Source of the DNA: Planctomycetia bacterium
GTDB lineage: Bacteria; Planctomycetota; Planctomycetia; Pirellulales; PALSA-1355
Length of the DNA: 60,535 nucleotides
Assembly: GCA_041497975.1 (NCBI GenBank)
Contig: JBGQHN010000002.1
Coordinates: forward strand, 1 to 60,535
Direction: 5' to 3'
Of the stretch, positions 38,680 to 60,167 are shown piece by piece. Each line of letters opens with the position of its first letter. Within the stretch, counting starts at the first letter, position 1. Under the pieces are notes generated by a model. That model saw only the letters and a program-made list of their open reading frames with translations. It did not search any database and was not told the origin of the DNA. The position numbers were made by a program, and so were the translations under genes.

Positions 38680-40428
38680 TCATTCGCCCTCGGACGGTGT
38701 CCAGAGCAAGTCGACGTAATGCGCCCCGGCGGTGATGCCCCCGCGTTCGACGCTGGCTTCCACTCTGGCCTCACCGGCTTCGAGCTGGACGGATTCGAAC
38801 GTGGCCTGCTCGAGGCCGGCTGAAAGCGGCCGGGTCATTTCCGTCGTGCCGATTCGCAAGCGCGCGGTGCTTTCAGCTTTCGCGGCCGGCGTGCGAACCG
38901 ATATGTCGTATCGCCCGGACGTGGCGACTACCACGGTCCAGTATCCCAGGCCGTCGTTGCGCCAATTGGCTTTGGGACCGCGCCAATCCTGACGCGTCAA
39001 GGTGACCGGGTTTTCGTGCTCGGTGCCGACGATGATTTTCGGCGCTGGATATCCGCGCGTGCCGCTGACATTGTCAAACCACACTTCGTAGGCCGCCTTC
39101 ATCTTGGCGGCAATCTCCGGGCGCGAATCGATGATATTGCGCGATTCCTCCGGGTCAGACGACATGTCGTAGAGCGCCCAAGCCGGCGCGAACGAAGCCT
39201 GGTCGTTGCGACCCTCGGGCTGAACCAGTTTGTAGCGTGGCCCGCGCACGGCGCACGCCCGAAACCGTTCGGGTTGATCGCCGCGGTGCCACTGAAAGAA
39301 CAACAGCCGCTCGGCGAGCGAGGCCTGCTCGCCTCGCAAAATCGGCAGCAGGCTCACGCCGTCGAATTCCACATTGGCCGGGCGCGAGATCTGACAGGCC
39401 TCGAGTAGCGTGGGCGTGAGGTCGATATGCGCGGCGACCGCGTCGACCTTGCGACCCGCCGCGAATTTTCCCGGCCAACGCAGGAGGCACGGCACGCGAA
39501 TGCCGCCGTCGTGCACCGAACCCTTTAGATCGTTCAAGATGCCGTTGTAACGCCGGACCTGGGGACCGTTATCCGTCAGGAAGACAACAATCGTGTTGTC
39601 GACCAACTTGAGCTCTTCGAGCTTCGCGAACAACCGCCCCAAGTTATCGTCGATGTTGGCAATCATGCCGTACAGCCTGGCCGTGTCGTCCGGCAATGAC
39701 ATCCCCTGGTATCGCCGGTGATACTCCGCGGGCACTTGCAACGGAGTGTGCGGGCAATTGAAGGCCAGGTAGGCAAAGAACGATTCATCGCGATGCGCGG
39801 TGATAAAGCGCATCGCCGCTTCGGTGAAAACGTCGCTGCAATATCCGCGCGATTTCACTTCCTTGCCATTGTGGAGCAGCACGGGATCAAAGTAGCTGTT
39901 TCCCGGCGGATCGGCGGGCTGGCCGATACCGCCGCCACGATGGACCAGGGCCTCGGCGAACCCTTGATCGATGGGGCGCGAGGGATAGTTGTCGCCCAAG
40001 TGCCACTTGCCGAAGATTCCGGTTTGATACCCGGCTGCGGACATGATTTCGGCGATGGTCGTTTCATCGGCGGCCATCGTCGATCGGCCCAAGTACGTAT
40101 CGATCGCGCCTGTGCGGTAGTTGTATCGACCCGTCATCAAACTGGCCCGCGTCGGGCTGCAAACAGGCGAGACATGAAACCGCGTCAATTCCAGGCTCTC
40201 GGCGGCAAGGCGATCGAGATGCGGCGTTTTCAGATGCGGATTTTCGTGGAAGCCAAAATCTCCCCACCCCTGATCGTCCGTCATGATCAACAGGACATTA
40301 GGTCGCGGCGCGCCGGCCGCCACAGCAAGGTGGCCAAAAATAGACGAGACAGCCAGAACGAGAGTACAACTAAGTCGATTCATTGATTGGTTGCTCAGAA
40401 AATGCCCCAAGGACTGAACACGCATCAA
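38680..40428 (-). CDS. Arylsulfatase (formylglycine-dependent sulfatase family)
   Basis: LLIMTDDQGWGD and the CSPTRASLMTGR FGly-modification motif are present, with GKWHLG and FLTDNGP. A signal-like N-terminus is present. Confidence 0.9.
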   Translation of the reverse strand: MMRVQSLGHFLSNQSMNRLSCTLVLAVSSIFGHLAVAAGAPRPNVLLIMTDDQGWGDFGFHENPHLKTPHLDRLAAESLELTRFHVSPVCSPTRASLMTGRYNYRTGAIDTYLGRSTMAADETTIAEIMSAAGYQTGIFGKWHLGDNYPSRPIDQGFAEALVHRGGGIGQPADPPGNSYFDPVLLHNGKEVKSRGYCSDVFTEAAMRFITAHRDESFFAYLAFNCPHTPLQVPAEYHRRYQGMSLPDDTARLYGMIANIDDNLGRLFAKLEELKLVDNTIVVFLTDNGPQVRRYNGILNDLKGSVHDGGIRVPCLLRWPGKFAAGRKVDAVAAHIDLTPTLLEACQISRPANVEFDGVSLLPILRGEQASLAERLLFFQWHRGDQPERFRACAVRGPRYKLVQPEGRNDQASFAPAWALYDMSSDPEESRNIIDSRPEIAAKMKAAYEVWFDNVSGTRGYPAPKIIVGTEHENPVTLTRQDWRGPKANWRNDGLGYWTVVVATSGRYDISVRTPAAKAESTARLRIGTTEMTRPLSAGLEQATFESVQLEAGEARVEASVERGGITAGAHYVDLLWTPSEGE

Positions 40429-42775: not shown

Positions 42776-42846
42776 GTCACTTGAAATGCCGTCGTCCGCC
42801 CGCACAGCAGATCGCAGTATTCTGCAAGCGCCGGCGCCAGGCCGCG

Positions 42847-43152
42847 TCAGGGTGACGCCCGTCGATAGCCGATTCCCGGTTCCGTGAGCAGGAACCGCGG
42901 TTGGGCCGGATTCGCCTCGACTTTTCTCCGGAGCTGAGCCATATCGACGCGCAGATAGTGCGTCTCGAACACGCTGTCGGGACCCCACACTTCCTTGAGC
43001 AGTTGACGGTGCGTAATTACCTTGCCGGCGTGCTTAATAAGCGTTGTCCGCTCGCAATTAACGCACATCAGTCGGTCGCGGTTCAACCGTTTGATAGCCT
43101 GCATCCTGGCAGATGGGCTGGGTACGGTTGTTTCTGCACCCCGCATGCGCAT
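42847..43152 (-). CDS. Orphan KdpE/OmpR-type winged-helix DNA-binding domain ORF (no receiver domain; possibly a remnant or frameshifted fusion partner)
   Basis: AGKVITHRQLLKEVWGPDSVFETHYLRVDMAQLRRKVEANPAQPRFLLTEPGIGYR aligns by eye with the E. coli KdpE C-terminus (AGKVLTQRQLLNQVWGPNAVEHSHYLRIYMGHLRQKLEQDPARPRHFITETGIGYRF). The N-terminal part of the domain looks shortened. It overlaps the upstream PilZ ORF by 95 nt in another frame. Confidence 0.5.
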   Translation of the reverse strand: MRMRGAETTVPSPSARMQAIKRLNRDRLMCVNCERTTLIKHAGKVITHRQLLKEVWGPDSVFETHYLRVDMAQLRRKVEANPAQPRFLLTEPGIGYRRASP

Positions 43153-43819
43153 GTTCGTTCAACGGCTCTTGCTGAGTCTGCAGGTGCAACGTGCGCAGGA
43201 CTTGATAGTCGGCGGCGCGCATAAACTGACAGCCCGCGAAGCGGTTGGGCCCGACAGCAAGCGTCCAGCGGACCTTGAGTGGAATGCGAACCTCGCGCCC
43301 GGAAATGGATCCAAAGACGCAAACGTGACGCGTGCTGTGCGGCGCCTCGCTGGTCGTCAAACAGAGTCCCCCTTCGGAGAAATCGCTGACGATGGCGGGA
43401 AGCCGCGCCTGCCCGGGTTGCAACTGCACTTGCACCGGAATGCGACTTCGTTCCCGCACCGACGAACGGCGATTCAATACTCCGCTGTCAAGAAAGTCCT
43501 GAAATGCTTCGTCCGAAAGTGGCGTCGCGAAGCGGCATCCCAACAGCCAGTCTCCGGCCGCGTCGGGACGCGCCCAATGAATCTCGGACGGCAAATCAAA
43601 CACCCGCTTCAGCCGGTGGCTCTTGAGCGAAATGCGGCACTCGTAGCGCAACTCGGGCGGACCCGTGACGAGCAGCTTAGCGCCCAGCTTCGAGATCTCG
43701 CGCAGCTCGGCAACCACTTCGCCGGGTGCAGTGGAATCTTTCGGAAGAATCGCGGCCTGAACCAGCTCGGGATTGACCAGCGAATAACGTCGCTGTCGGC
43801 GTAGTGGCAAGTTTGTCAC
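43058..43819 (-). CDS. Tandem PilZ-domain protein (putative c-di-GMP receptor)
   Basis: Two RxxxR + D/E-x-S-x-x-G pairs are present: RRQRRYS...ELREISKLGAKL and RRSSVRERSRI...VSDFSEGGLCL. Each is followed by a beta-rich segment. Confidence 0.75.
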   Translation of the reverse strand: MTNLPLRRQRRYSLVNPELVQAAILPKDSTAPGEVVAELREISKLGAKLLVTGPPELRYECRISLKSHRLKRVFDLPSEIHWARPDAAGDWLLGCRFATPLSDEAFQDFLDSGVLNRRSSVRERSRIPVQVQLQPGQARLPAIVSDFSEGGLCLTTSEAPHSTRHVCVFGSISGREVRIPLKVRWTLAVGPNRFAGCQFMRAADYQVLRTLHLQTQQEPLNEHAHAGCRNNRTQPICQDAGYQTVEPRPTDVR

Positions 43820-44243
43820 GGCGCAGCTCGCTTGTGAAGGGTTTCGATCAATTGCTACTGACGATATGGAACTTTAGGTCACGTCTAATGGCTTGCCGAA
43901 CAAACCCAACGATCGTTCCGGGAGATTGGGTCCCGTTTTTTAGCGCCAGGGAAGAGCGCACGGCAACGCCTGGCATCGCCGACACCTCGTTCGGGCGTCG
44001 CGACGGCATTCAATATCCCTCTTCATTCGCATTCTCGAAACCATCCGTACAACCGATCCGGCCAACGCTGCTTTCGTCGATTTCGTGATCCGCAAAACGA
44101 TCGCCCCGTTGTCAACAATCCCGTAAAAAGCGGAGAAATTCGTAGACAAGTGGCCTGTCGAATTGGCATAATCGACTGGCCGTCTCTTCGTATCTCGCCG
44201 GTCTGAGACACGATCATCTCTCGCGTTAAAGGCGCAACGCATC

Positions 44244-46928
44244 ATGGCGAACGTGACTGATCCCAATCCGTGGGGAGCGATTCCGCTGTCCGATTCCCAG
44301 CGCCATGTGCAGGCTTCGCAGCAGCACGTTGTGCCGCAGCAGTCCAATCACGACGCGTGGTTGCTCAAGGAGAGTTACCGAGCGGAACAGGAGTTCAAAA
44401 CCGTGGAATTGTCGACGGCATTGCACAATCTGTTCGATATCGCGCACGACCAGGTCGTTTGGAATCTGTCGTCCTCACGATCGACGGGTCCGCCAGGCGA
44501 CGAACAATACATTCGCGTCGATCCGCGTCACGGCTACGGGCCGGCTATCGCCCGCTCGGTGAGCGCCGCAAAAATCGAGACCAGCGAACACGCCGGCTCG
44601 AACTCCTGGCTGATCATCGTGGATGAAGCGCGCGATTTGCTGGTCGGAGACCGCATCGATCAACTCGAAACTGCGCTCGAGCAAGTACCACGGATCCTGC
44701 TTGTGGCCTGTGAGGATGAAGAAGCGCCGGGTTCGGCGGCGTCCGACGTCGAAGAAGCCAGCGCCCGCCGCGCCGTTGAAATCAGCGCTCGATTGCGTTT
44801 CGAATACGTCGGACCGATCGCGGAGGGCGATTCGCGCTGCTTGCTGGAAACGCTCGCGCAAATCAAGCAGCTGGGCCGCCCCACGCTGTTGCACTTGAAA
44901 ACAAACCCTCGCTCGGGAACCCGGCTCGAGCCGCACCCCACGGACGATTCGCCGGCGCTTGACGCTGTCCAACAGACCGAACCGGCCGTCGGATTGCCGC
45001 GCCACGTAGCCAGCGAGCAACTGGCGCAACTGGCGCGCGACGATGGCCGCGTCGTCGCCGTCTCGACAGACTTGGACATAAGCTTGCTGGGCCCCTGGAC
45101 GACGATCCCCAATCGCATGTTCCCGGTCGCCTCGGGCGTACCCCACGCTCTCGAGTGGTGCGCCAGTCTGGCCGCGGGCGGAAGTCGTCCATTCGCGTTT
45201 CTCTCTTGGGAAGAGTTGCAAAACTGTTTCGGCGACGTGCGTCAGAGCATCTGCCTGAAACGCGCCGCCGTGACTTTGATTGTCGAACCCCGACGGCAGA
45301 CGACGGGCGCCGAACGCGTCTCGTCGGCGGGACTGGCCGGAATTCGACAATTGCCCCATACCTCGTTGCTGTCGCCAAAAGACGCCAACGAATTGCGGCA
45401 AATGCTCGCCTGGTGCGCGTCGCAGCATGATCCGGTCGTGATCTGGCTGCCGCAAGGCGTCGAACCACAAGTTGCCCTGACACACTCATCGCCGGTCGTC
45501 CTCGGACAAGCCGAGCAATTGACCGAGGGTTTTGACGTCGCGATCGTGGCCTGGGGCCCGCAAGTGGCCGCGGCACACGCGGCAGCCGCAAAGCTGGCGC
45601 AACAAGGAATCGGCGCGACGATCGTCAATGCGCGCTTCGCGCAGCCGTTGGACCTCGACACGATCGCGCGGGCCGTGCGCGGTGCGCAGTGCGCCGTGTT
45701 GGTCGACGACGCCGACGCTCGAGGAGGCTTTAGCAGTTGGGTGCTGGAGCACTTGCTCCGTCTGGGCGTCACGCAGCCCGTGTCGATCCTTGGGCCTCAA
45801 GAGCGCTCGCTCGACCAGGTCGACGTCCAAAACCAGCTCGCGGTTGCCATTTTTGAACACTGCCGCTGGCTGTCCGCGCCGATATTGCCGGGCCTGACGG
45901 TCGAAGCGCCCTTACCGGTGGTAACCCCCGTCGAGTGCAAGGCGGTGGGGACCAACTGGGCGACCTACCTTGGCGGGCAGGCCGAGCGAATGGCTCGCGA
46001 GCGGGCGCAAATCCAAGCCCGGCAACTATCTTCCGATGTTCGGCGGTGGGTCGTGGCCTACGAGGAAATCGGGTCGCGTGACCTATATTTGTGGAAGTGG
46101 TGCATGCACGGAGTTGAGCTTACGACGCTGCCTTGCGTCCTGCCCGAATTCCGCGCGCACGTGTGCGACACGAAAGTACTGTCCATCGTGCTGTGCGTGC
46201 TGTTGGACGATGTTGCCGACCAGCATGGTGACAGTCACCTGCTGGATGCCTTGCTGGAGATGACATGTTGGGGGGTTTCCCGTTCGTTGCGGGGGTTGAG
46301 CGCTGTGGAGCGAAGGCACGCGGAGCTGACCCGCCGCTTGTGGGCAGAATATCAGGCGCGCATTGCCGGCTACCCGTGTTACCACACGTTCGAGCCGGTG
46401 TTGCGTTACGACTTGCTGCAGTTTTTCAACACGATGCGTTATTCCTACCTGGTGAACGGACGGCCCTATCTGTTGAACATGGTGGAGCACGACTTATACA
46501 CCTCGCACAACATGATGATGATTAGCTTCGCCATGCTCGACTTGATGTGCAGCCCGGGATTTCCGCAGGCGGAAGTGGGCACGCTGCGCGAGGCGATGTG
46601 GCACGCGCAATGCATGGGGCGAATTGGAAACCTTCTGAGCACGTGGCGGCGCGAGCTGGTCGATCGCGATTTCACCAGCGGCGTTTTTGCCCGCGCGATG
46701 ATGGAAGGCGACCTGACGCTGGACGAGCTCGAGCACGGCGACTCGACCAGGCTCGAGACGACTATTCGCGCACGGGGACACGAATCGTATTTCTTTCGCA
46801 AGTGGCTGGAACATCGCGAGCGATGCCACGCGAGCGCCCAGCGAATTCATTCGCTGGACTTGAAGTCAGTATTGGACGGACATGACCGATTTTTCGCAAT
46901 GCATTTGGGGAGCCAGGGTTTGATTTAG
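44244..46928 (+). CDS. Fusion protein: degenerate 1-deoxy-D-xylulose-5-phosphate synthase (DXS)-like region + class I terpene-synthase-like C-terminal domain
   Basis: Residues ~50-560 are collinear with DXS. Matches include VELSTALHNLFDIAHDQVVWNL, RFEYVGPIAEGDSRCLLETLAQIKQLGRPTLLHLKT, NRMFPVASGVPHALEWCASLAAGG, ANELRQMLAWC and ATIVNARFAQPLDLDTI. The ThDP motifs are substituted. Residues ~600-894 carry DDVAD (nt 46206-46220) and NLLSTWRRE (nt 46629-46655), about 140 residues apart. Confidence 0.8.
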   Translation: MANVTDPNPWGAIPLSDSQRHVQASQQHVVPQQSNHDAWLLKESYRAEQEFKTVELSTALHNLFDIAHDQVVWNLSSSRSTGPPGDEQYIRVDPRHGYGPAIARSVSAAKIETSEHAGSNSWLIIVDEARDLLVGDRIDQLETALEQVPRILLVACEDEEAPGSAASDVEEASARRAVEISARLRFEYVGPIAEGDSRCLLETLAQIKQLGRPTLLHLKTNPRSGTRLEPHPTDDSPALDAVQQTEPAVGLPRHVASEQLAQLARDDGRVVAVSTDLDISLLGPWTTIPNRMFPVASGVPHALEWCASLAAGGSRPFAFLSWEELQNCFGDVRQSICLKRAAVTLIVEPRRQTTGAERVSSAGLAGIRQLPHTSLLSPKDANELRQMLAWCASQHDPVVIWLPQGVEPQVALTHSSPVVLGQAEQLTEGFDVAIVAWGPQVAAAHAAAAKLAQQGIGATIVNARFAQPLDLDTIARAVRGAQCAVLVDDADARGGFSSWVLEHLLRLGVTQPVSILGPQERSLDQVDVQNQLAVAIFEHCRWLSAPILPGLTVEAPLPVVTPVECKAVGTNWATYLGGQAERMARERAQIQARQLSSDVRRWVVAYEEIGSRDLYLWKWCMHGVELTTLPCVLPEFRAHVCDTKVLSIVLCVLLDDVADQHGDSHLLDALLEMTCWGVSRSLRGLSAVERRHAELTRRLWAEYQARIAGYPCYHTFEPVLRYDLLQFFNTMRYSYLVNGRPYLLNMVEHDLYTSHNMMMISFAMLDLMCSPGFPQAEVGTLREAMWHAQCMGRIGNLLSTWRRELVDRDFTSGVFARAMMEGDLTLDELEHGDSTRLETTIRARGHESYFFRKWLEHRERCHASAQRIHSLDLKSVLDGHDRFFAMHLGSQGLI

Positions 46929-46930
46929 TC

Positions 46931-46977
46931 GCGCAGGCAAGTCGCCGAACCAGGGAAACGTGTTCGGCGGCCTGCGC
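46931..46977 (+). promoter_or_regulatory. Long interrupted GC-rich stem-loop in the 88-nt gap between the fusion gene and the sensor kinase gene
   Basis: GCGCAGGC (46931-38) pairs with GCCTGCGC (46970-77). CGCCGAAC (46943-50) pairs with GTTCGGCG (46962-69). That is 16 bp in total with an 11-nt loop and a 4-nt bulge. No T-run follows. Confidence 0.5.
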
Positions 46978-47016
46978 CGCGAACGGTAGAAGTGCTTGCC
47001 TCGGCCCGGATGAACT

Positions 47017-50000
47017 ATGACAGCCCGCCTGCTAAAACGATTCGCCGCGCACTACATCCTCATCATGATGTGCGTCACGCGCGCCATTGCGCTGGTGATC
47101 GGCGGGCTGTGCGTCTATTACGTCAACCTGACGTTCAATCTTTCGCTGTACAACCATTACCATTTCGAGATTGCGGCCATCATCGTCGTTCCACTGGCGG
47201 CAGTTCTTACCGTACTGATGGCGTTGTGGGAAACTCGCGATTTGCGGCACGCGCTAGCCAGCTTGAAGGCCGGCAAGCCGGTCGAACTGGCCGTCGCCGT
47301 GGCCGCCGGTCGACAGGCCGTGCTATTCCCGGGCCGCCACGCAATCCGCGAAACGATCGTCGATCCGTTTCTCACGATTCTGCCCCTGTGCATCATCCTG
47401 CGCGTTGCCGACGGCGCGCCGGCTCTGGTGATGGCCCAGATCAGCATCGCCGGATTCATGGGACTGGCGGCGTTGATCATGACCACGTTTTTCATCAGCG
47501 AGCACTGGCTGCGGCCCGTGATCCAGCACTTGCTGGACGAGGGGCTGCCGATTGCTTACACGCAGCTTCCCGAATCGAAGCTGCAGTTCCGGATGACGAT
47601 TTGCTTCGGACTAACGATCGCCGTCACCGGGCTGATGATCGGCGCCCTGGCCAACCAGCGCGCCATGGACATCATCAACTATCCCGAACAGCAATCCGAA
47701 GCCGTCGCCAGCCTGCGCGAACACACCGGTTTTATCATGCTGTTCGCGATCCTGCTGGGGTTGTTTCTGTCGCGCATGCTCTCCAATTCAATCGCCAGCC
47801 GCGCGCGGCTAATGCTCGAAGCCATGCGGCAAGTGCAGCAGGGACGATTATGCGAGCGGCTTCACCCTACGGGCAACGACGAGCTCGACATTCTGGCGCG
47901 GCAGTTTGACGTGATGGTCGAACAGCTCGACCAGAACGATCAAACCATCCGCGACTTGAACACTGACTTGGAACAAAAGGTTCGTCGTCGCACGCGACAG
48001 TTGTCGCGCAGCCGGCGAACCCTCAAGCGATCGCTCGACAAGCTCACCGAACACGATCGGATGAAAACCGAGTTCTTCTCCAACGTCAGCCACGAATTGC
48101 GCACCCCGCTCACGATGATCTTGGCGCCGGTCGATCGGTTGCTGCAACGCAAGGCCGATTCCATCGGCGCCGATGCGAACAACCTGTTGGAAATGGTCCG
48201 GCTCAATGGCTATCGGCTTTTGGACCTGATCAACCGGCTGTTGGATTTTTCCAAGCTCGAAGCCGGGCAGATGAAGCTTCAGCCGGGCCGTCTCGATCTC
48301 AATGGCCTGGTGCACAAACTGCTCGCGGCAGCCACCCCGTTGACGCAGCAGCGCGGCATCCGGCTGGAGGCCGACTGCGACCCCCAACTTCAGCCCTTTG
48401 GCGCCGACGAAGAGAAAGTCGACACGATTATCAGCAACCTGGTTTCCAACGCCATCAAATTCACGCCGCAGGGCGGCACGATCAAGGTCGAAACCCACCA
48501 GGCCGAGGATCGGGCCTGGGTTTCCATCACCGACTCGGGCATCGGCATCGACCCCTCGCAGTGCGACAGGATCTTCGAGCGCTTCGTGCAGGTTGACGGA
48601 TCGTCGTCACGCGAGTTCAGCGGCACGGGCCTTGGCCTGTCGCTGGTCAAGGGCCTCGTCGAGCTGCACGGGGGCGAAATCTACGTGCAAAGCCAACTGG
48701 GAAAGGGATCAAGATTCTGGTTCGATTTGCCGTTGCGGCCGTTGCCCGACGAGGCCCAAAAGCGCGTCGCGGCCGAGCCTGAGAAAATCGCCAAACGCTT
48801 CGCGGACCTCGATACGTACGTCGAGCGGCCGGCGCCCGTTGCCGAGGTCGAACATCAAGCCGGACCCTATGCCCCAACCGTTCTCGTCGTCGACGACACG
48901 ACGGAAATGCGCGTGCTGGTGGGAGAAATACTGCGCGAGCAGTACCATGTCCTCTTCGCGCGCGACGGGCAAGAGGGGCTCGAGGTGGCCGAGCGCGAAC
49001 ATCCCGATCTGATCATTTCCGACGTGATGATGCCGCGCATCGACGGTCAGGAATTCTGCCGGCGCATCAAGGAAAACTCCGCCACCGCGCATATCCCGTT
49101 CATCATGCTGACGGCCAAGGCCGAGCTGGCGATGAAAATCGGCGGGCTCGACTGCGGCGCGGACGACTATCTGACCAAGCCATTCGACGAGAAGGAGCTC
49201 AAGGCCCGCGTCCGATCGCTGCTGAAGCTGCGCGGGTTGCACCAGGATCTCGACCGCCGCAACCGCGACTTGCGAACCGCTTATAACGAATTGCGGGAAT
49301 TGCAGAATCAACTGGTGCAGGCCGAAAAGATGAGCTCCCTGGGGCAACTCATCGCCGGACTGGCCCACGAAATCAACAACTCGATCAATGCCGTCTACAA
49401 CGGCATCAAGCCGATGTCATCCAACATGCATCGCCTGGAAAACCTGTTGGCCGAGGTGCTTGCCGCGCCCGAGCTGGAAGGCCAGCAGCCCGTGCGTTCC
49501 GAGATTGAAGCCCTGTTTAAGAAGATCTTCTCGCTAGCCAAAGTGGTCGAGACCGGCGCATCGCGCACCGCGCGCATCGTCGCCGACCTGAAGTCGTTTT
49601 CGCATCCGGGCAACGAAGACTTTCTGGTATTTGACTTGCACGAATCGCTCGACATGTGCTTGAACCTCTTGTCCAACACGCTTCGCGACCGCATCGAAGT
49701 GCATCGGGATTACGGTCCGATCGGTCGCATTTACGGCCCCAGCGGACAGCTCAACCAGGTATTCATGAACATCTTGAACAATGCGCAGCAAGCCATCACG
49801 GGAGAGGGCGCGATCTTTGTCACAACCCGCCAGGAAGGAGACTCGGTCAGCGTCACCATTCGTGATACGGGCCCCGGAATTCCGGAATCGATTCGGGACA
49901 AGATTTTTGATCCGTTCTTTACGACCAAGGATCCCGGCCATGGCACCGGCATGGGCCTGTCGCTCAGCTTCGGATTGATCACGAAGCTCGGCGGCACCAT

Positions 50001-50130
50001 CGAATGCAAGAGTATCGTCGGGCAAGGAGCCGAGTTTGTCGTCCGATTTCCGTGCGTCGCCGAAGCGCCCAACGACCCCGACGTCGAGGACGCCACGGCA
50101 GAATTTGTTGTTGAGAGGGCGGGGCGATGA
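47017..50130 (+). CDS. Hybrid sensor histidine kinase with architecture TM-HAMP-HisKA-HATPase-REC-HisKA-HATPase
   Basis: Several N-terminal TM helices and a HAMP-like segment (GNDELDILARQFDVMVEQL) are present. The first kinase core has H-box FFSNVSHELRTPLT and G-box GTGLGLSLVKGLVELHGG. The receiver has VLVVDDT...DLIISDVMMPRIDG...LTAK...DDYLTKPF. A second H-box LIAGLAHEINNSINAV and second G-box GTGMGLSLSFGLITKLGG follow. Confidence 0.9.
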   Translation: MTARLLKRFAAHYILIMMCVTRAIALVIGGLCVYYVNLTFNLSLYNHYHFEIAAIIVVPLAAVLTVLMALWETRDLRHALASLKAGKPVELAVAVAAGRQAVLFPGRHAIRETIVDPFLTILPLCIILRVADGAPALVMAQISIAGFMGLAALIMTTFFISEHWLRPVIQHLLDEGLPIAYTQLPESKLQFRMTICFGLTIAVTGLMIGALANQRAMDIINYPEQQSEAVASLREHTGFIMLFAILLGLFLSRMLSNSIASRARLMLEAMRQVQQGRLCERLHPTGNDELDILARQFDVMVEQLDQNDQTIRDLNTDLEQKVRRRTRQLSRSRRTLKRSLDKLTEHDRMKTEFFSNVSHELRTPLTMILAPVDRLLQRKADSIGADANNLLEMVRLNGYRLLDLINRLLDFSKLEAGQMKLQPGRLDLNGLVHKLLAAATPLTQQRGIRLEADCDPQLQPFGADEEKVDTIISNLVSNAIKFTPQGGTIKVETHQAEDRAWVSITDSGIGIDPSQCDRIFERFVQVDGSSSREFSGTGLGLSLVKGLVELHGGEIYVQSQLGKGSRFWFDLPLRPLPDEAQKRVAAEPEKIAKRFADLDTYVERPAPVAEVEHQAGPYAPTVLVVDDTTEMRVLVGEILREQYHVLFARDGQEGLEVAEREHPDLIISDVMMPRIDGQEFCRRIKENSATAHIPFIMLTAKAELAMKIGGLDCGADDYLTKPFDEKELKARVRSLLKLRGLHQDLDRRNRDLRTAYNELRELQNQLVQAEKMSSLGQLIAGLAHEINNSINAVYNGIKPMSSNMHRLENLLAEVLAAPELEGQQPVRSEIEALFKKIFSLAKVVETGASRTARIVADLKSFSHPGNEDFLVFDLHESLDMCLNLLSNTLRDRIEVHRDYGPIGRIYGPSGQLNQVFMNILNNAQQAITGEGAIFVTTRQEGDSVSVTIRDTGPGIPESIRDKIFDPFFTTKDPGHGTGMGLSLSFGLITKLGGTIECKSIVGQGAEFVVRFPCVAEAPNDPDVEDATAEFVVERAGR

Positions 50131-51299
50131 AACGAGACGTGCTGTACGTGGATGATGAGCCGGAGAATCTCATCGTTTTCCAGGCCACGTTCGAAGAACA
50201 CTTTAACGTCATTACGGCCGAAAGCGGTCGCGAAGCGCTCGACTTGCTGGCCGACAGGTCGTTTCCGGTCGTGGTCTCGGACCAGCGCATGCCCCGCATG
50301 TCGGGCGCCGAATTGTTCGAAGTCATGCGGCACAAGTTTCCGCACACCAAGCGGGTGATGCTCACGGGCTACGCCGACTCGAAGGCCATGCTCGATGCCA
50401 TCAACCAAGGTCAGGTGTTCTACTTCATCAGGAAACCTTGGGAGCAGGACCTGGTTTTTTCAACCCTGGTCCGCGCGATCGAAGCTTACGACATGTCGAT
50501 AGCAAACATGGTTTTGCAAGACCGGCTGGTGGCCTCCGACCGCTGCGCGATGCTCGGCCGGTCCGCCGCTCAACTGGCCCACGAAATGGGCAACCAATTG
50601 TGCATGCTGCCGTTACTGGAGCTGATCGAGGACCAGTACAGCGACCAGGAAAACCTGGTGCGCATGGCGGGATTCGCCCGTTCCACTTACGAGCGCCTGG
50701 TGCAAATCATCAACGAGGTCAAGGCCTTTGTCCGTTTCGAGCGCGAAGACGTGATCACACAACCGATCAGTCTTTCGGAAGTCGTGCACGAGCTGGTCGA
50801 GTTCCTAAGATTCGAACGCAGCCTGCCGCTCGCGCAATTCAGCGTGCAGATCGAGACCGAGCTGTGCGTCAAAGCACATCGAGTGAAACTGCAACAAGTG
50901 CTCCTGAACCTGCTTAAGAATGCCGCCCACGCGATACGCGGCACCGAATCCGGGCGCATTTCGCTGGCGATTGCCGCCGTGGACGGCCAGGCCGTGATTA
51001 CGGTCGCCGACAATGGGTGCGGAATGACGCCGGAAGTCGCGGCGCGGATCTGGGAACCATTCTTCACCACCAAGGGCGAGGAGGGGACCGGACTGGGACT
51101 CGACGTCGCCAAATCGATCATCGAGGCCCACGGCGGCTCGATCGACTGCGAAACGGCGCCCGGGCAGGGAGCCACGTTTACGATTCGCTTACCAAAGTGG
51201 GAGGCCACCGACGTCGATCCGCGGCGCGACGCGACGCGGCCCATCGCCATTGTGCCCCAAGAGTCGCCCGCGCCGTCATTGGCGCAGCACGCTACGTAG
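50127..51299 (+). CDS. Response-regulator receiver fused to histidine kinase core (REC-HisKA-HATPase)
   Basis: The receiver has VLYVDDEPENL...VVVSDQRMPRMSG...MLTGYAD. The kinase core has H-box-like SAAQLAHEMGNQL and G-box GTGLGLDVAKSIIEAHGG. Its ATG overlaps the upstream TGA (ATGA at 50127-50130). Confidence 0.9.
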   Translation: MKRDVLYVDDEPENLIVFQATFEEHFNVITAESGREALDLLADRSFPVVVSDQRMPRMSGAELFEVMRHKFPHTKRVMLTGYADSKAMLDAINQGQVFYFIRKPWEQDLVFSTLVRAIEAYDMSIANMVLQDRLVASDRCAMLGRSAAQLAHEMGNQLCMLPLLELIEDQYSDQENLVRMAGFARSTYERLVQIINEVKAFVRFEREDVITQPISLSEVVHELVEFLRFERSLPLAQFSVQIETELCVKAHRVKLQQVLLNLLKNAAHAIRGTESGRISLAIAAVDGQAVITVADNGCGMTPEVAARIWEPFFTTKGEEGTGLGLDVAKSIIEAHGGSIDCETAPGQGATFTIRLPKWEATDVDPRRDATRPIAIVPQESPAPSLAQHAT

Positions 51300-51349
51300 G
51301 AAACACCCGGCCTGCCCCGCGCAAGCCCCACGATTATGGAGATCCATCG

Positions 51350-52306
51350 ATGAAGATTCTGCTCGTCAGTCCGCGCGGCTTTTGCGCGGGAGTCAACATG
51401 GCGATCGAAGCCCTCGAGCGCGCCATCGCCATGTTTGGAACGCCACTCTACGTATTTCACGAGATCGTGCACAACCGCCACGTGGTCGAGGGTTTTCGCC
51501 GCAAGGGCGTGGTGTTTGTCGACGAAGTGCACGAGGTGCCCCCCGGCAGCCACCTGATGTACAGCGCGCACGGCATTTCTCCGGCCGTGCGCCAGGCCGC
51601 CCAAGAGCGCCAACTGCGAGTCATCGACGCCACGTGCCCGCTGGTGCGCAAAGTGCATCTCGAGGCCGTTCGCTTCGCCCGGCTCGGCTATTCGATCGTG
51701 CTGGTCGGTCATCGCGATCACGATGAGGTCGTGGGCACATTGGGCGAGGCACCCGATCGGATAACGCTGGTGGAAACCGTCGAAGACGTCGACCGCTTGG
51801 AAGTGCCCGATCCCGACAAGGTCGCTTACCTGACGCAAACCACGCTGAGCGTCGACGACGCCAACGTGCTCATCGACCGCTTAAGGCGGCGTTTTCCCAA
51901 TTGCGTCGGCTCTCACAAGGAAGACATCTGCTACGCCACACAGAACCGCCAAGAGGCACTCAAGGCCGGGGTCGCCAAGGCCGACGTGGTCTTGGTGTTT
52001 GGCAGCAAGAACAGCTCCAACAGCATTCGCCTGACGGAAGTTGCCCGTGAGTTCCAACGTCCCACGTACCTGGTTGATAGCGTGAGCGAGATCGACCCGG
52101 CGTGGTTTCGTGGCGACGAGACCGTGCTGATCACCGCCGGTGCCAGCGCGCCAGAGGATCTCGTGGTCGAGTGTATCGATTATTTGAGCCGCACATTTGG
52201 CGGAACGACTGAGCATTTGGCAGTTCGGGAGGAACACGTTGAGTTTCCGCTGCCGTTAGAAGTTCGCCCGCTCGCCGGGGGTGCCGCCGCGGCCACGGGA
52301 TCGTAG
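51350..52306 (+). CDS. ispH: 4-hydroxy-3-methylbut-2-enyl diphosphate reductase (IspH/LytB)
   Basis: ATG at 51350 lies inside ORF 51017..52306. The three cluster cysteines sit in conserved contexts: PRGFCAGV, DATCPLVRKVH and EDICYATQNRQ. VGHRDHDEV and GSKNSSNS are also present. Confidence 0.92.
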   Translation: MKILLVSPRGFCAGVNMAIEALERAIAMFGTPLYVFHEIVHNRHVVEGFRRKGVVFVDEVHEVPPGSHLMYSAHGISPAVRQAAQERQLRVIDATCPLVRKVHLEAVRFARLGYSIVLVGHRDHDEVVGTLGEAPDRITLVETVEDVDRLEVPDPDKVAYLTQTTLSVDDANVLIDRLRRRFPNCVGSHKEDICYATQNRQEALKAGVAKADVVLVFGSKNSSNSIRLTEVAREFQRPTYLVDSVSEIDPAWFRGDETVLITAGASAPEDLVVECIDYLSRTFGGTTEHLAVREEHVEFPLPLEVRPLAGGAAAATGS

Positions 52307-52508
52307 CCAATACGTCGACGATATCGTTTCAGGCGGTACCAGCGGAAGAAATTAGAATGAATTCTCCAGAGTCCGTCATCACGGCGACGATCTGAAGTCT
52401 GCGTCTCGCAATTCTTTGCGGAGAAGCCTGCCACTTTAGGCAAACTTTAGCGGACGGCGGGCACTTTACGGGTGACTCCCCACGGTTACAGACGACGGAG
52501 CGCGATTC

Positions 52509-53789
52509 ATGAAGCTGCGCCGAATGCTCGGTATTGCTGCATTAGGTCTTCTATGCTGGCATCCTTGCGCTTCTCGGGCCGACGGCCTGGTACGCGACGG
52601 CCTGGGCCCTATCTCCACCGGCCGCGGCGGAACGAACCAGGCCTTTGCCGACAATGCGGTCATCATTCTCGACAATCCGGGCTCGCTGGTTAACGTGGCC
52701 GGCAACGGATTGGCCGAAGTCGGCGCCGATACCGTCATCACGGTCGTCGACTACTCCAATCCGTTTAACGACGTCAACAGCAAGATCCGCCCGTTGCCGA
52801 TGCCCGTGCTGGGCTACATTCGCAAGAGCGAGGACTGCCGCTGGGCCTGGGGCATCGGGGCCTTCGCTCCGGCGGGCTTTGGCGCATCCTACGGCGTGTT
52901 GAACAACCCGGTGGTCGGCCCCAATCTGTACCGCTCAATCGGCGGCATGGCCAAGATCCTGCCGGCCCTTTCCTACAAGGTCAACGACCGGCTCAGTATC
53001 GGTGGCTCGGTCGGTATCGCCTTCAGCCACGTCGCGTTGGACGGCCCATTCTTCATGCAATCGCCCCCGCTGACCGGACTGCCGGCGGTTCTCGACCTGC
53101 AGGGAACGGGCGTCGCGCCCACCGGGTCGGTCGGCATGCAGTACCAGTTGACGGAGCGCACCGTGTTGGGGGCCTCGTATACGGAACAGACAAACTTCGA
53201 TCTGCGCGGCCACGTTCAATCCGTGTTGTTTCCCGGGTTCCCCCTCGCGAGCGACTTCGACACCAAGATCCACATGAAGTGGCCGCGGTCGGTGGCCGTG
53301 GGACTCAAGCACGAGATTTGCCCTCACCGGCGCGTTTCGGCCGACGTGATCTGGTACGACTGGGCCCACGCGTTCGACCAGATCAATTTAGAATTGACGA
53401 ACCCCTCGAATCCCATCGTGTCGGGGCTGTTGGCCGGTCGCCCGGTCCACGATGTCTTTCCGCTGAATTGGACCAATTCGGTTTCGATGCGGCTGGGCTA
53501 TGAGTGGCTGCCAAACGATCGCGACACGTGGCGCACCGGATACGTCTACCATGGCAGTCCCGTGCCCGACTCCACGCTCAATCCGTATCTCGACGGCGTG
53601 CTGAATCACGCGTTCAGCCTGGGCTATAGCCGCAATCTGGGACGTGCCATCTTCAATGCCGCCTACCAGTACAATTTCGGCAAGCATCGACACGTCAACG
53701 ACAGCATCCTCGTGGGCGGCGATTTCGACAACTCATCGCTCAACGCCCAAGCGCACTTTGCGATGTTGAGCTTGCTGTGCCCCTTTTGA
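52509..53789 (+). CDS. Outer membrane transport protein of the OMPP1/FadL/TodX family
   Basis: A signal peptide is followed by GLGPISTGRGGTNQAFADNAVIILDNPGSL, the family N-terminal hatch motif. An alternating beta-strand pattern runs throughout, and the C-terminal residue is Phe. Confidence 0.8.
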   Translation: MKLRRMLGIAALGLLCWHPCASRADGLVRDGLGPISTGRGGTNQAFADNAVIILDNPGSLVNVAGNGLAEVGADTVITVVDYSNPFNDVNSKIRPLPMPVLGYIRKSEDCRWAWGIGAFAPAGFGASYGVLNNPVVGPNLYRSIGGMAKILPALSYKVNDRLSIGGSVGIAFSHVALDGPFFMQSPPLTGLPAVLDLQGTGVAPTGSVGMQYQLTERTVLGASYTEQTNFDLRGHVQSVLFPGFPLASDFDTKIHMKWPRSVAVGLKHEICPHRRVSADVIWYDWAHAFDQINLELTNPSNPIVSGLLAGRPVHDVFPLNWTNSVSMRLGYEWLPNDRDTWRTGYVYHGSPVPDSTLNPYLDGVLNHAFSLGYSRNLGRAIFNAAYQYNFGKHRHVNDSILVGGDFDNSSLNAQAHFAMLSLLCPF

Positions 53790-53912
53790 TGGCGAACCGC
53801 TTCTTCTCGGCCGTCCATCACACCGCGCGGGTCCTCGTCCCCCGGGTGTAACCGCGGGCGCGGTTCCGCTAGAATTAGGCGTGGATGTGACATCGCGACG
53901 CGGCGCCCACGC

Positions 53913-55880
53913 ATGATAGATTCCGACTTTGCCATCCAGACCGCTCTGGTCCATCACCAGGCCGGTCAACTGCTACAAGCCGAGCAGATTTACCGGCGAA
54001 TCCTCGAAGCAGAGCCGCGAAACGTCCAAGCGCTGCACTTGCTGGGCGTCATCGCTTCGCAAACCGGCCGGCATGAGGCGGCCATCAAGCTGATCTCCGA
54101 CGCCATCGAATTGGACGCCAACAACGCGATTCTGCATCTCAATCTGGGCGAAGCCTATCGCGAAGCGGGCAAACTCGACCTTGCTCGAGCCAGCTATGTC
54201 AAGGCATCCGCCCTCGACTCGCGATGGCCGAAGCCGCACTTCTACCTGGCGCTTGCGTACGCTGCCCAGGGCGACTTGCAAGCCGCCGAAGAATGCTGCC
54301 GACGCGCGATTCTGCTCGATCCAAACGATGCCGCGGCCCATTATTCGTTGGGCAACATATTGAAACAACGCGGCGATTCCGAGGCCGCCATCGCCAGCTA
54401 CCAGAGGGCGGTCGACGCGGATCCAAATTTCTTCGAGGCTATCCTGAACCTCGGAAGCGTGTTACGCGAATGCGGTCGTGTCGTCGAGGCCCGAGCGTAT
54501 TTGCACCGCGCGATCCAACTCCAACCGCGCGTCGCCGAGGGATTCTATTTCTTGGCCAATCTGGAAGGGTCGTGCGGAAACTGGGCTCTGGCGATCGAAT
54601 ACTACCGTCGGGCGCTGGCGTTGAACCCGAAGATGGTTGCGGCCGAAGCTCGGCTCGCCACGGCGCTGCAAACTCAGGGGATACTTGAGGAGGCCGTCGT
54701 GCATTACCGACGGGCCATCGAGCTTCAGCCCGACTTCGGCGAAGCCTACTACAACCTGGGCACCGCCCTGGCCGAGCAGGGGCACATGCCCGAAGCGGCT
54801 GAGCAATACGAATTGGCGATCCAACATAATCCAGGCTTCATCTCCGCGCACATCAACCTGGCCGGCTTTTATCAAGACAATGGCCAGGAGGACCGGGCAC
54901 TGGTCCACATCGATCGGGCGCTCGAGATCGATCCACAGGCTCCCGAGCCCCGTTTCAACCGCGCGTTGATCTTCTTGCGGCGGGGCGAGCTGGCCGCTGG
55001 TTGGGGCGATTTCCAAGCACGCCTGCGGCTGAAAGGATTTCCGGTACAGGCCAGAACCGAGCCCTTGTGGGACGGCTCGCAAATTCTCGGAAAGACGCTG
55101 CTGGCGCATTGGGAACAAGGCTTGGGCGACACGTTGCATTTCATCCGCTATGCGCCGTTGGCCAAGGAGCGCTGCGCCAGGGTCGTGCTGCAAGTTCAAA
55201 CCGCGCTGGTACCGCTGCTGCGGCAGGCCGGGCTTGAAGAGATTTTTGGCGACGACGACCCGCTGCCCCCCTGCGATGTCCAAGCGCCCCTGATGAGCCT
55301 GCCGGGAATGCTGGGAACCACCTTGGCCAATATTCCCGCCGAGGTTCCGTACTTGTCCGTTCCCGACACGGTCATCGCTCGATGGCAAGAACGACTCGCC
55401 ACGCTCGGCGGACTGCGCGTGGGAATCGCCTGGCAGGGCAGCCCGACGCACATTAGCGACCGGGCACGCTCGATTCCACTGGCCGAGTTCGAACCACTGG
55501 CGCGCATCGCCGGAGTGACGCTGGTCAATTTGCAGAAGCACGACGGCGTTGAGCAACTGGACGAAGTGAAGTTCGCCGTCCATCGGCTCGAAGGCGATTG
55601 GGACGAGACAGCCGGTCCCTTTGTCGACACTGCGGGTGTCATGAAGAACCTGGACCTGGTCATCACCGCCGATACCGCCATAGCGCATTTAGCCGGCGCC
55701 ATGGGAGTGAACGTCTGGGTCGCGCTCGATGTGCACTGCGATTGGCGCTGGATGCGCGACCGCGAAGATACGCCGTGGTATCCCACGATGCGCCTGTTTC
55801 GCCAGGCTCAAAAGGGAAATTGGACCGACGTCTTCGGGCGCATCGCCGCGCAACTGGAGCGCTATCGATGCCCGAAATAA
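53913..55880 (+). CDS. TPR-repeat protein with C-terminal glycosyltransferase-family-9-like domain
   Basis: At least 9 TPR units are present (AEQIYRRILEAEPRNVQALHLLG, AIASYQRAVDADPNF, AVVHYRRAIELQPDF and others). The C-terminal LGDTLHFIRYAPL, VGIAWQGSP and DLVITADTAIAHLAGAMG resemble the heptosyltransferase-like (GT9) fold. Confidence 0.75.
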   Translation: MIDSDFAIQTALVHHQAGQLLQAEQIYRRILEAEPRNVQALHLLGVIASQTGRHEAAIKLISDAIELDANNAILHLNLGEAYREAGKLDLARASYVKASALDSRWPKPHFYLALAYAAQGDLQAAEECCRRAILLDPNDAAAHYSLGNILKQRGDSEAAIASYQRAVDADPNFFEAILNLGSVLRECGRVVEARAYLHRAIQLQPRVAEGFYFLANLEGSCGNWALAIEYYRRALALNPKMVAAEARLATALQTQGILEEAVVHYRRAIELQPDFGEAYYNLGTALAEQGHMPEAAEQYELAIQHNPGFISAHINLAGFYQDNGQEDRALVHIDRALEIDPQAPEPRFNRALIFLRRGELAAGWGDFQARLRLKGFPVQARTEPLWDGSQILGKTLLAHWEQGLGDTLHFIRYAPLAKERCARVVLQVQTALVPLLRQAGLEEIFGDDDPLPPCDVQAPLMSLPGMLGTTLANIPAEVPYLSVPDTVIARWQERLATLGGLRVGIAWQGSPTHISDRARSIPLAEFEPLARIAGVTLVNLQKHDGVEQLDEVKFAVHRLEGDWDETAGPFVDTAGVMKNLDLVITADTAIAHLAGAMGVNVWVALDVHCDWRWMRDREDTPWYPTMRLFRQAQKGNWTDVFGRIAAQLERYRCPK

Positions 55881-59066: not shown

Positions 59067-60167
59067 TTATTCCGGCGGCAATTCGGCGACGATGTTGCCT
59101 TTGCGCGTGCCGAGGTTTCGCCAGACGGCGGCGTCAATGTTCTCCTCGACGAAGTGCGTTGAGCCGTCGACCATCACGGCAATAACGCCCCCCACGTGGG
59201 CACTGCGCGCGGTAGCAAACGATGCCCCCATCGACGGATTACTCTCGATGTTGCAGTCATACAAATAAGCCGGAGGCGGCATGGGATACGGTTCACACAA
59301 AGCCAGCACATCGGCAAATGCATCGGTATTCGGCGAAGGCGGGTACTGCGGAGTGATCGTATTCGGCGGGTGGCGAGTCGTGAAGGCCATGCCGCCCATG
59401 CCACCCAGGGTCCAAGCGCCCCGCACATCTTTGGCGGACGGATACCCGAGGATTTCGCTCGCCAAAATGGTCTTGGAGGTGCCGTCGGTGATGGTGGCCA
59501 GTTTGACGCCGAGCTTCGACCCCATTTTCCAACCACCTTTCATCGACGGATCGTTCATCGCTTGATTGATTGGGGCCCCTCGCGCTGAGCGGACGTCGAC
59601 GATATCAAACACGCCGGCCGTCGTGGGCGACTTGTAGGAGAAATATGTCTCGCTGCCAAAGTTGCCGACGTAATTCCCTTTGGCGATGTTGGTCACGCCG
59701 ATGGCGGTCAGATTCGCGGTGGACTCGAACCGTTCGGCGCTGGGACAGAGAAATGTCGGCGGCGGAGCAATCCCCTTGGTGCACTCTTCGCACACGTTGC
59801 AGCTCGTCTCCATACAGGCTTTGATCAAGTCGAATTGCGACCGCTCTTCCATGAAGGGCATGATGGCGATCGTCCAGGCCGGTCCTTGGCACCAGGCCCC
59901 TGCGCTGGCGCCGCCAGCGATGCCAAAATTCGCCGGGGAAACGCAGTTGGGCAAACCGGGCGGAAGCGCGCCGAACGTCTCTTCGTGCTGCTGCGCTGCC
60001 AACGCAACCTGATGCAAGTTGCTGATGCACTGATTGCGGCGCGCCGCCTCGCGGGCCGCATTCACGGCGGGAATGAGCAGCGCGATCAGTGCGCCAATGA
60101 TGGCAATCACGACCAGGAGCTCGACCAAGGTAAAGGCGCTTCGACGGCGCGGGACTTGCCGTTTCAT
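59067..60167 (-). CDS. DUF1559 protein with prepilin-type N-terminal cleavage/methylation domain
   Basis: [48 protein letters not shown] is the canonical Planctomycete type-II-pseudopilin-like N-terminus. [15 protein letters not shown] is the usual C-terminal block. Confidence 0.9.

Follow-up and report, generated by a model that had tools for sequence, protein, structure and literature searches.

In a 60,535-nucleotide stretch of DNA from a Planctomycetia bacterium of the order Pirellulales (contig JBGQHN010000002.1, positions 1 to 60,535; hereafter the window), we found a gene whose 894-amino-acid (aa) product joins a catalytically dead relative of the synthase for 1-deoxy-D-xylulose 5-phosphate (DXS), the first enzyme of the methylerythritol phosphate (MEP) pathway, to a C-terminal domain with the fold and the metal-binding motifs of class I terpene synthases, which we call the terpene-synthase-like (TSL) domain. 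This architecture is real and conserved, a point on which we have next to no doubt. We propose that the TSL domain belongs to a regulated enzyme that would make a hydrophobic isoprenoid and be linked to a neighboring kinase and an outer-membrane channel of the FadL family. To this account taken as a whole, architecture and mechanism together, we assign a probability of about 0.5.

The fusion gene and its DXS-derived module

The open reading frame (ORF) runs as a single unbroken frame from an ATG at position 44244 to a stop codon at 46926-46928, as a first-pass annotation made from the sequence had reported. Since the N-terminus of the protein, MANVTD, is kept in orthologues, the assigned start appears sound. 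The first 49 residues (44244-44390) are predicted to be disordered, yet the opening MANVTDxxxW is shared by nearly all Pirellulales orthologues. Some 30 orthologues of full length (38-70% identity, 811-894 aa) came out of a first search, every one from a metagenome-assembled genome (MAG) of the Planctomycetota and named in the databases at most "hypothetical protein" or "transketolase C-terminal domain-containing protein". Over 100 proteins show the fusion architecture, at 860-950 aa; they come from assemblies of NCBI, JGI, ENA and Logan, contigs of 2-8 Mb included. The first-pass annotation had raised the possibility that the ORF is an assembly join of two separate genes; in a rival explanation, assembly or gene calling would have joined a decaying dxs pseudogene to a separate gene downstream. 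The weak conservation and partial predicted disorder of DXS domain I would fit such a join, but the unbroken frame, the conservation of domains II and III and of the linker motif, and above all the recurrence in so many independent Planctomycetota assemblies rule it out and leave it a negligible chance.

The N-terminal part of the protein had been described as collinear with full-length DXS, and our comparisons bear this out. With phmmer against PDB sequences, residues 183-515 paired with residues 245-584 of E. coli DXS (2O1S; E = 2.8e-25, 27% identity), and a further stretch paired residues 51-76 with DXS 54-79 at 4.5 bits, which is not significant alone; all four sequence pairings quoted in the first-pass annotation were found again in HMMER or MAFFT alignments. 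Pfam recognized Transketolase_C (4e-21), the last 40 positions only of DXP_synthase_N and, under threshold, Transket_pyr. A full-length AlphaFold2 model, made with 24 orthologues in the alignment, had a mean predicted local distance difference test score (pLDDT) of 72, with values of 75-93 in DXS domains II and III and disorder at residues 1-54, 75-119, 222-249 and 548-570. When this model was compared with the PDB by Foldseek, the top 50 matches were all DXS (E ~3e-21, 430-590 aligned columns). The collinearity is therefore real, though domain I is partly predicted to be disordered and is shortened by about 110 aa (~170 aa versus ~290 aa), with deletions near DXS residues 85-120 and 184-240. 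Both Foldseek and HMMER thus place a three-domain DXS/transketolase-like fold, in DXS order, in the window protein. It shares this domain order and fold with the DXS of E. coli (2O1S) and D. radiodurans (2O1X) but differs from them in its shorter domain I, in the loss of thiamine diphosphate (ThDP)/Mg-binding and catalytic residues, and in an additional C-terminal domain of about 300 aa.

The loss of catalytic residues was examined in a MAFFT alignment of the window protein with E. coli DXS, 10 genuine DXS and 19 family members, and repeated by hmmalign to the DXS profile. In E. coli numbering, the ThDP/Mg2+ motif GDG...N (G151-D152-G153 and N181) and the diphosphate-binding residues H80 and G121-S123 are replaced, as are H49, Y392 and D427; the cofactor-activating E370 is Val, R398 is Asn, R478 is Gln and H431 falls in a gap. 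All nine catalytic or cofactor positions that we scored are replaced in the window protein, and they are variable among the 19 family members. The claim that the catalytic signatures of DXS are gone thus held in both alignments, which left no ThDP-binding or catalytic residue intact. One detail of that claim needs correcting: the reading of GDG as VDE is one residue off from the MAFFT register, but in either register the motif is unconserved in the family. Because the substitutes vary from orthologue to orthologue, no alternative catalytic set has been fixed. A DXS active on alternative residues was considered and ruled out, the substituted positions being unconserved even inside the family.

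The window protein scores 152.2 bits against the NCBIfam dxs model TIGR00204, far under its equivalog cut-off of 465.95. Four defining features of DXS were tested for and found absent, and the protein is not a DXS. Judged by its residues, its DXS part is a pseudoenzyme, the label already given to it by the first-pass annotation: the fold is kept in domains II and III and the chemistry is not. The names DXS and transketolase are unsuitable for the annotation of these proteins. A tblastn search of the window with E. coli DXS matched the fusion ORF only and thus revealed no second dxs within the 60,535 nucleotides.

The terpene-synthase-like domain and its family

A model of the TSL domain, built from an alignment of 21 C-terminal domains, was all-alpha with a pLDDT of 85 and a predicted TM-score (pTM) of 0.85. 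Its top 50 Foldseek matches in the PDB all have the isoprenoid-synthase fold and are led by bacterial class I terpene synthases (7ZRN, 9M25, 9KGB and 8B4L; probability 1.0, TM 0.53-0.57, E ~1e-3). The first-pass annotation had proposed such a domain on the strength of two motifs, DDVAD and NLLSTWRRE, and both the fold and the metal-binding pair were upheld. The second motif, of the NSE type, lies late in another long helix, 141 aa downstream of DDVAD, which is the class I arrangement, and an alignment of 24 full-length orthologues shows no change at D655, D656, D659, N796, T800 or E804. Three features of class I terpene synthases, an all-alpha fold, a DDxxD motif and an NSE/DTE motif some 140 aa downstream, are thus present. 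In the family at large, the pair DDxx[DE]...N-x3-[ST]-x3-E was found in 131 of 147 representatives with a spacing of ~139-143 aa (outliers 134-158), most of the remaining 16 being fragments, and the family signature can be written DDxAD ... RIGNxxxTWxRE. The canonical NSE-type motif has the form NDxxSxxxE, where the TSL domain has NLxxTWxRE. Five of 21 orthologues matched Terpene_syn_C_2 (PF19086) under threshold (best 6e-5), and two relatives at greater distance scored over its gathering score of 23.7 bits (P0247, 34.6 bits; P0241, 26.1 bits). A trans-prenyltransferase was rejected as a candidate, since there is a single DDxxD motif and it is paired with an NSE motif.

Compared with bacterial class I terpene synthases (PF19086; for example 10-epi-cubebol synthase, 7ZRN, and hydropyrene synthase, 8B4L), the TSL domain has the all-alpha fold in common, as well as the DDxxD and N-x3-(S/T)-x3-E motifs on separate long helices about 140 aa apart and the basic residue before the last Glu. 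It differs in that the identity is only 11-17%, in being far more conserved than typical synthases, and in being fused to DXS or signaling domains and paired with histidine kinases. Sequence and model together suggest a new family within the class I terpene-synthase fold, one that lacks some secondary motifs and scores at the margin of the Pfam models or beneath it.

The family is large. Searched against 1.84 billion cluster representatives, the TSL profile retrieved 725 proteins at E <= 1e-3, of which 389 had E <= 1e-30, and a second search that returned names gave "hypothetical protein" only. A scan of GTDB species genomes yielded 46 TSL loci, 45 of them labelled Planctomycetota (Pirellulales, Planctomycetaceae, Phycisphaerae) and one assigned to a "Deltaproteobacteria" bin. 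Some members are stand-alone proteins of 320-370 aa; those with DXS-like N-termini form the largest group. Others carry an N-terminal PilZ domain (P0206, P0210, P0215, P0234, P0242, P0258 and P0263), a cyclic-nucleotide-monophosphate (cNMP)-binding domain (P0205, P0217 and P0228) or REC plus PilZ (P0218). REC, PilZ and cNMP-binding domains typically serve as inputs at the N-terminus, and their position ahead of the TSL domain argues that the latter is an output or effector domain. One protein of 593 aa (P0148) has a complete 3,4-dihydroxy-2-butanone 4-phosphate (DHBP) synthase (RibB; Pfam 2e-73) in place of DXS; its contig is only 2.5 kb long, so that the fusion could come from gene calling. 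At another locus (L057:8368-9039) DHBP synthase is encoded by a gene of its own, some 1 kb upstream of a stand-alone TSL gene. DXS and RibB alike yield small keto-sugar phosphates; this could be chance or could have a meaning. These hundreds of sequence clusters, all "hypothetical", constitute a terpene-synthase-fold family that standard terpene-synthase mining has largely missed and that is wired to signal transduction, both through its PilZ, cNMP-binding and REC fusions and through an almost obligatory neighboring sensor kinase, described below.

In the literature, where we also looked for Planctomycetes terpene synthases, we found no description of a fusion of DXS to a terpene synthase, of a DXS-like pseudoenzyme, or of a PilZ-, cNMP- or REC-fused, kinase-paired terpene-synthase-like domain. 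A structure-based survey of non-canonical terpene synthases proposes classes ID, IE and IF; the class ID motifs differ from those described here, and neither Planctomycetes nor transketolase is mentioned (PMC11234867). A paper on the evolution of the MEP pathway likewise mentions no such fusion (PMC10663253). Together with the generic database names, this agrees with the earlier opinion that the fusion is not a described family. A parallel in domain architecture is offered by the prenyltransferase-terpene synthase chimeras, which are reported to occur in fungi only (PMC8307374). There, too, one polypeptide joins an upstream enzyme of the isoprenoid pathway with a class I synthase-type domain; in our case, however, the partner is the first MEP enzyme and not a prenyltransferase, it stands N-terminal to the synthase-like domain, and in the window protein it is dead.

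Near-intact relatives and the origin of the DXS module

Not all members of the family have lost the DXS residues. Six fusions keep 8 of the 9 scored positions (P0161, L032, L035, L037, L039 and L045); three come from MAGs labelled Phycisphaerae, and the others are labelled Planctomycetota or Planctomycetales only, or not at all. In all six the single lost position is the same, H80N, within the DVGHQ motif. One of them (L032:1527-4268, 913 aa) matches DXP_synthase_N at 314 bits, Transket_pyr at 167 bits and Transketolase_C at 115 bits, that is, a complete DXS in terms of Pfam. At this locus the fusion gene is followed by one for a geranylgeranyl-reductase-like FAD protein and another for a short IspH, which shares only 29% identity with its E. 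coli counterpart but agrees with it at 11 of 12 checked catalytic positions, S226 being replaced by Ala. Other proteins, for example P0176 and P0149, have DXS modules of intermediate state, and the window protein stands at the fully degenerate end.

Since six fusions retain nearly all scored positions, the dead module is probably the relic of a bifunctional DXS::TSL enzyme; the comparison of residues points to a DXS module that was probably active in the past. The likely course is one fusion with subsequent decay. In the scheme we favor, DXS would have been fused first as an active enzyme for precursor supply, and in the Pirellulales lineage of the window it would have decayed to a non-catalytic scaffold for dimerization or regulation, the metabolic work falling to a separate, canonical dxs. 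The sodorifen cluster, in which a DOXP synthase is encoded beside the terpene synthase (PMC7862628), is a precedent for such precursor supply. The suggestion of the first-pass annotation that the relic may act as a sensor or scaffold is plausible. A complete chromosome (L043, OY970273.1) provides an example of the two genes near each other: it carries a degenerate fusion plus a canonical dxs of 639 aa with all motifs intact, the latter encoded together with a polyprenyl synthase (320 aa) on the opposite strand right after the FadL gene of the cluster (L043:17813-20694). A genuine DXS can thus co-exist with the relic. In another locus (L018) a similar, weak minus-strand match was seen downstream of FadL. 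Near-intact, intermediate and fully degenerate DXS modules are therefore fused to one and the same partner domain in different MAGs, which lays the path of decay open to direct study and makes the family a clear case of pseudoenzyme evolution in central isoprenoid metabolism.

Genomic context and proposed function

The fusion gene of the window is followed on the same strand by genes for two kinases, IspH and a FadL-family channel (Table 1). Counting fetched loci that had enough flanking sequence, we found that in 40 of 42 a multi-pass-membrane hybrid kinase starts no more than 3 kb downstream of TSL; within 10 kb downstream there is a REC-kinase in 32 of 34, IspH in 27 of 34 and FadL in 25 of 34. 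The order of the genes is not fixed. Loci of Phycisphaerae-labelled MAGs read TSL, IspH, kinase, REC-kinase, FadL; another (L056) reads TSL, IspH, FadL, with a kinase and a REC-HD-GYP protein divergent upstream; a third arrangement (L057) is TSL, kinases, REC-Hpt protein, HD protein, IspH, FadL. Even a stand-alone member 32% identical has a HisKA_7TM kinase gene 17 bp behind it. The pairing of TSL with a kinase survives these changes of gene order. The divergent PilZ gene upstream of the fusion is conserved in part of the Pirellulales loci, and other lineages fuse PilZ directly to the TSL domain. In the window, the region 47017-51299 encodes a hybrid kinase with two kinase cores (HisKA-HATPase, REC, second HATPase_c) and then a REC-kinase with the H-box LAHEMGNQL; the operon as a whole contains a three-kinase cascade and no DNA-binding response regulator. 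A locus of another kind (L006:8034-13034) has a stand-alone TSL gene, a paralogue 28% identical to it and a sigma70-like::FadL fusion protein, as well as two geranylgeranyl-reductase-like genes, a B12 radical SAM gene and a polyprenyl synthase; it looks biosynthetic and contains no kinase. Scans for promoters and terminators gave counts not above those in shuffled sequence, the lone promoter-like site at 44143-44172 being only suggestive, and an Rfam scan of 42800-54000 found no thiamine pyrophosphate, cyclic di-GMP (c-di-GMP) or other riboswitch upstream of the fusion gene.

Table 1. Positions in the window of the fusion gene, its domains and motifs, and the adjacent genes
Feature	Coordinates	Strand	Remarks
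PilZ-domain protein, 253 aa, divergent	43058..43819	-	RSSVR(118)...DFSEGG(146) c-di-GMP-binding motifs
Whole fusion ORF, DXS-derived pseudoenzyme plus TSL domain	44244..46928	+	894 aa
DXS domain I relic (ThDP diphosphate-binding domain), aa 50-220	44391..44903	+	Shortened; His, GDG and N motifs gone; least conserved
DXS domain II (pyrimidine-binding), aa 251-410	44994..45473	+	Activating Glu replaced by Val; Y392, R398, D427 and H431 lost
DXS domain III (Transketolase_C), aa 411-535	45474..45848	+	Well conserved; confident model
Linker, aa 536-590	45849..46013	+	Family-specific motif C540-x-W542...P546 at start; aa 548-570 predicted disordered
TSL domain, aa 591-894	46014..46925	+	Class I terpene-synthase alpha fold (predicted); most conserved part
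DDVAD, aa 655-659, first metal-binding motif	46206..46220	+	C-terminal end of long helix
NLLSTWRRE, aa 796-804, NSE-type second metal-binding motif	46629..46655	+	Inside family signature RIGNxxxTWxRE
Hybrid histidine kinase, 1037 aa	47017..50130	+	About 6 hydrophobic (transmembrane) segments, HAMP, HisKA, HATPase, REC, second kinase core
REC plus histidine-kinase core, 390 aa	50127..51299	+	Start overlaps stop of preceding kinase gene by 4 bp
Canonical IspH/LytB, (E)-4-hydroxy-3-methylbut-2-enyl diphosphate (HMBPP) reductase	51350..52306	+	50% identical to E. coli IspH; 12/12 checked catalytic residues kept
FadL/TodX-family outer-membrane channel for hydrophobic compounds	52509..53789	+	FadL within 10 kb downstream of TSL in 25 of 34 loci

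We propose that the TSL domain is the working part of the protein. Mean identity between the window protein and its orthologues is 36% in DXS domain I, 51-54% in domains II and III and 71% in the TSL domain, which suggests that the last of these is the selected part of the fusion. The TSL domain would bind a prenyl diphosphate via a Mg cluster and ionize or hydrolyze it to give a hydrophobic isoprenoid, from precursors that the co-operonic IspH would supply. The adjacent multi-pass-membrane hybrid histidine kinase would be linked to this product, which would serve as its ligand or else be the output of the pathway, and the product would cross the outer membrane by the co-operonic FadL channel. 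The activity of the TSL domain would be controlled by the N-terminal module, which in paralogues is PilZ, cNMP-binding or REC. That the protein is a regulated enzyme of this kind, linked to kinase and FadL, has by our reading of the genes even odds or slightly less.

A more specific version of this proposal is a hitherto unrecognized isoprenoid signaling module of the Planctomycetota, in which a gated TSL domain would turn precursors derived from IspH into a lipophilic terpenoid, FadL would let it pass and the kinase would perceive it, the gates being c-di-GMP, cNMP, phosphorylation or, in the window protein, the dead DXS module. Such a module might be a terpene counterpart of autoinducer systems of the CqsA/CqsS type. 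In CqsA/CqsS and LuxM/LuxN, an autoinducer synthase is paired with a membrane hybrid-kinase receptor; here as there, the gene for a putative small-molecule synthase adjoins that for a multi-pass-membrane hybrid kinase. The analogy is one of layout, with isoprenoid instead of acyl-derived chemistry and a system known so far from its genes. FadL mediates the uptake of hydrophobic long-chain acyl-homoserine lactone signals (PMC9938287), and the FadL of the window could similarly give a lipophilic signal passage through the outer membrane. We consider the signaling module possible, with the odds clearly against it. If the product is a signal, the system would represent terpenoid-based signaling, or a control of MEP flux, in a soil and aquatic phylum that is abundant and little understood, and a terpenoid-signaling system could be categorically new.

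Several observations weigh against the regulated-enzyme proposal. The TSL domain of the window, like several stand-alone members, has no match in Pfam or NCBIfam, and the family profile found none among PDB sequences. The Foldseek scores given above (TM 0.53-0.57, E ~1e-3) are modest, and prenyl-chain synthases of the same fold were matched too. Canonical bacterial class I synthases have a pyrophosphate-sensor Arg at the helix-G break and a C-terminal RY pair; we found neither an invariant Arg some 46 aa upstream of N796 nor an RY pair that is conserved. The region equivalent to the helix break (residues 741-756) has invariant N745, E748, H749, D750, H755 and N756, and the domain has other invariant basic residues (R612, R782, R793 and R803). 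The TSL domain is also unusually conserved and rich in invariant polar residues (E748, H749, D750, H755, N756, H787, Q789), which is odd for cyclases; such conservation would suit ligand binding or a housekeeping function no less than catalysis. The kinase may sense the product or may instead control the TSL domain, two cases that sequence does not separate. Almost all of the synteny comes from one phylum, so that gene order passed on by descent may explain some of it, and the IspH of the window looks like an ordinary housekeeping copy. Finally, the order of events (an active DXS first, decay afterwards) depends on a rough neighbor-joining tree built from TSL domains, in which intact and degenerate fusions do not clearly form one clade; the tree is too rough to tell one DXS fusion event from two.

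The high conservation also bears on an alternative in which the TSL domain is no enzyme and serves as a receptor of prenyl diphosphates (isopentenyl, dimethylallyl or farnesyl diphosphate, or HMBPP) that reports the level of MEP end products to the kinase cascade; in the intact fusions it would be a feedback sensor for the fused DXS, and the window protein would have kept the sensor with a structural DXS shell. Conservation of so many invariant polar residues is atypical of cyclases that diversify their products, the TSL-kinase pairing is near-universal, the cluster contains both the first (DXS) and the last (IspH) enzyme of the MEP pathway, and the operon encodes no DNA-binding output. However, the complete three-part metal motif for ionization is invariant, and the N-terminal REC, PilZ and cNMP-binding fusions follow the usual order of input then output, with TSL as the output. 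One TSL member resides in a biosynthesis-like cluster without a kinase (L006), and a FadL channel is hard to account for with a purely cytoplasmic sensor. On this evidence we regard the receptor, the main rival of our proposal, as unlikely.

We find it distinctly improbable that the TSL domain is an ordinary terpene synthase of specialized metabolism, whose precursors the fused DXS and IspH boost and whose link to the kinase is one of gene order only. Extra MEP genes do occur in terpenoid clusters: the sodorifen cluster has genes for a terpene synthase and a methyltransferase, and also for a DOXP synthase (DXS) and an isopentenyl diphosphate isomerase (PMC7862628). As in the fusion, an extra DXS is there genetically coupled to a terpene synthase, the product being a volatile hydrocarbon; the sodorifen genes are separate, however. 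Intact DXS fusions exist, and L006 has its polyprenyl synthase and geranylgeranyl-reductase-like genes, both of which would fit this alternative. The sodorifen genes, to our knowledge, have not been described as paired with a kinase or FadL gene. Against it stand the kinase found behind TSL in 40/42 loci, members of 32% identity, Phycisphaerae-labelled MAGs and varied gene orders included, and the direct REC, PilZ and cNMP-binding fusions; nor does the boosting of precursors explain why a dead DXS is kept under purifying selection.

Elsewhere in the window, two tandem ORFs of 737 and 758 aa at 2444-6687, which overlap by about 250 bp as listed, both have type I phosphodiesterase/nucleotide pyrophosphatase domains. 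Hallmark planctomycete families, which agree with the window being of Pirellulales origin, are found at 9669-13197, 38680-40428 and 59067-60167: DUF1501, a PSCyt2/PSD1 pair, a sulfatase, and DUF1559 with an N-terminal methylation motif.

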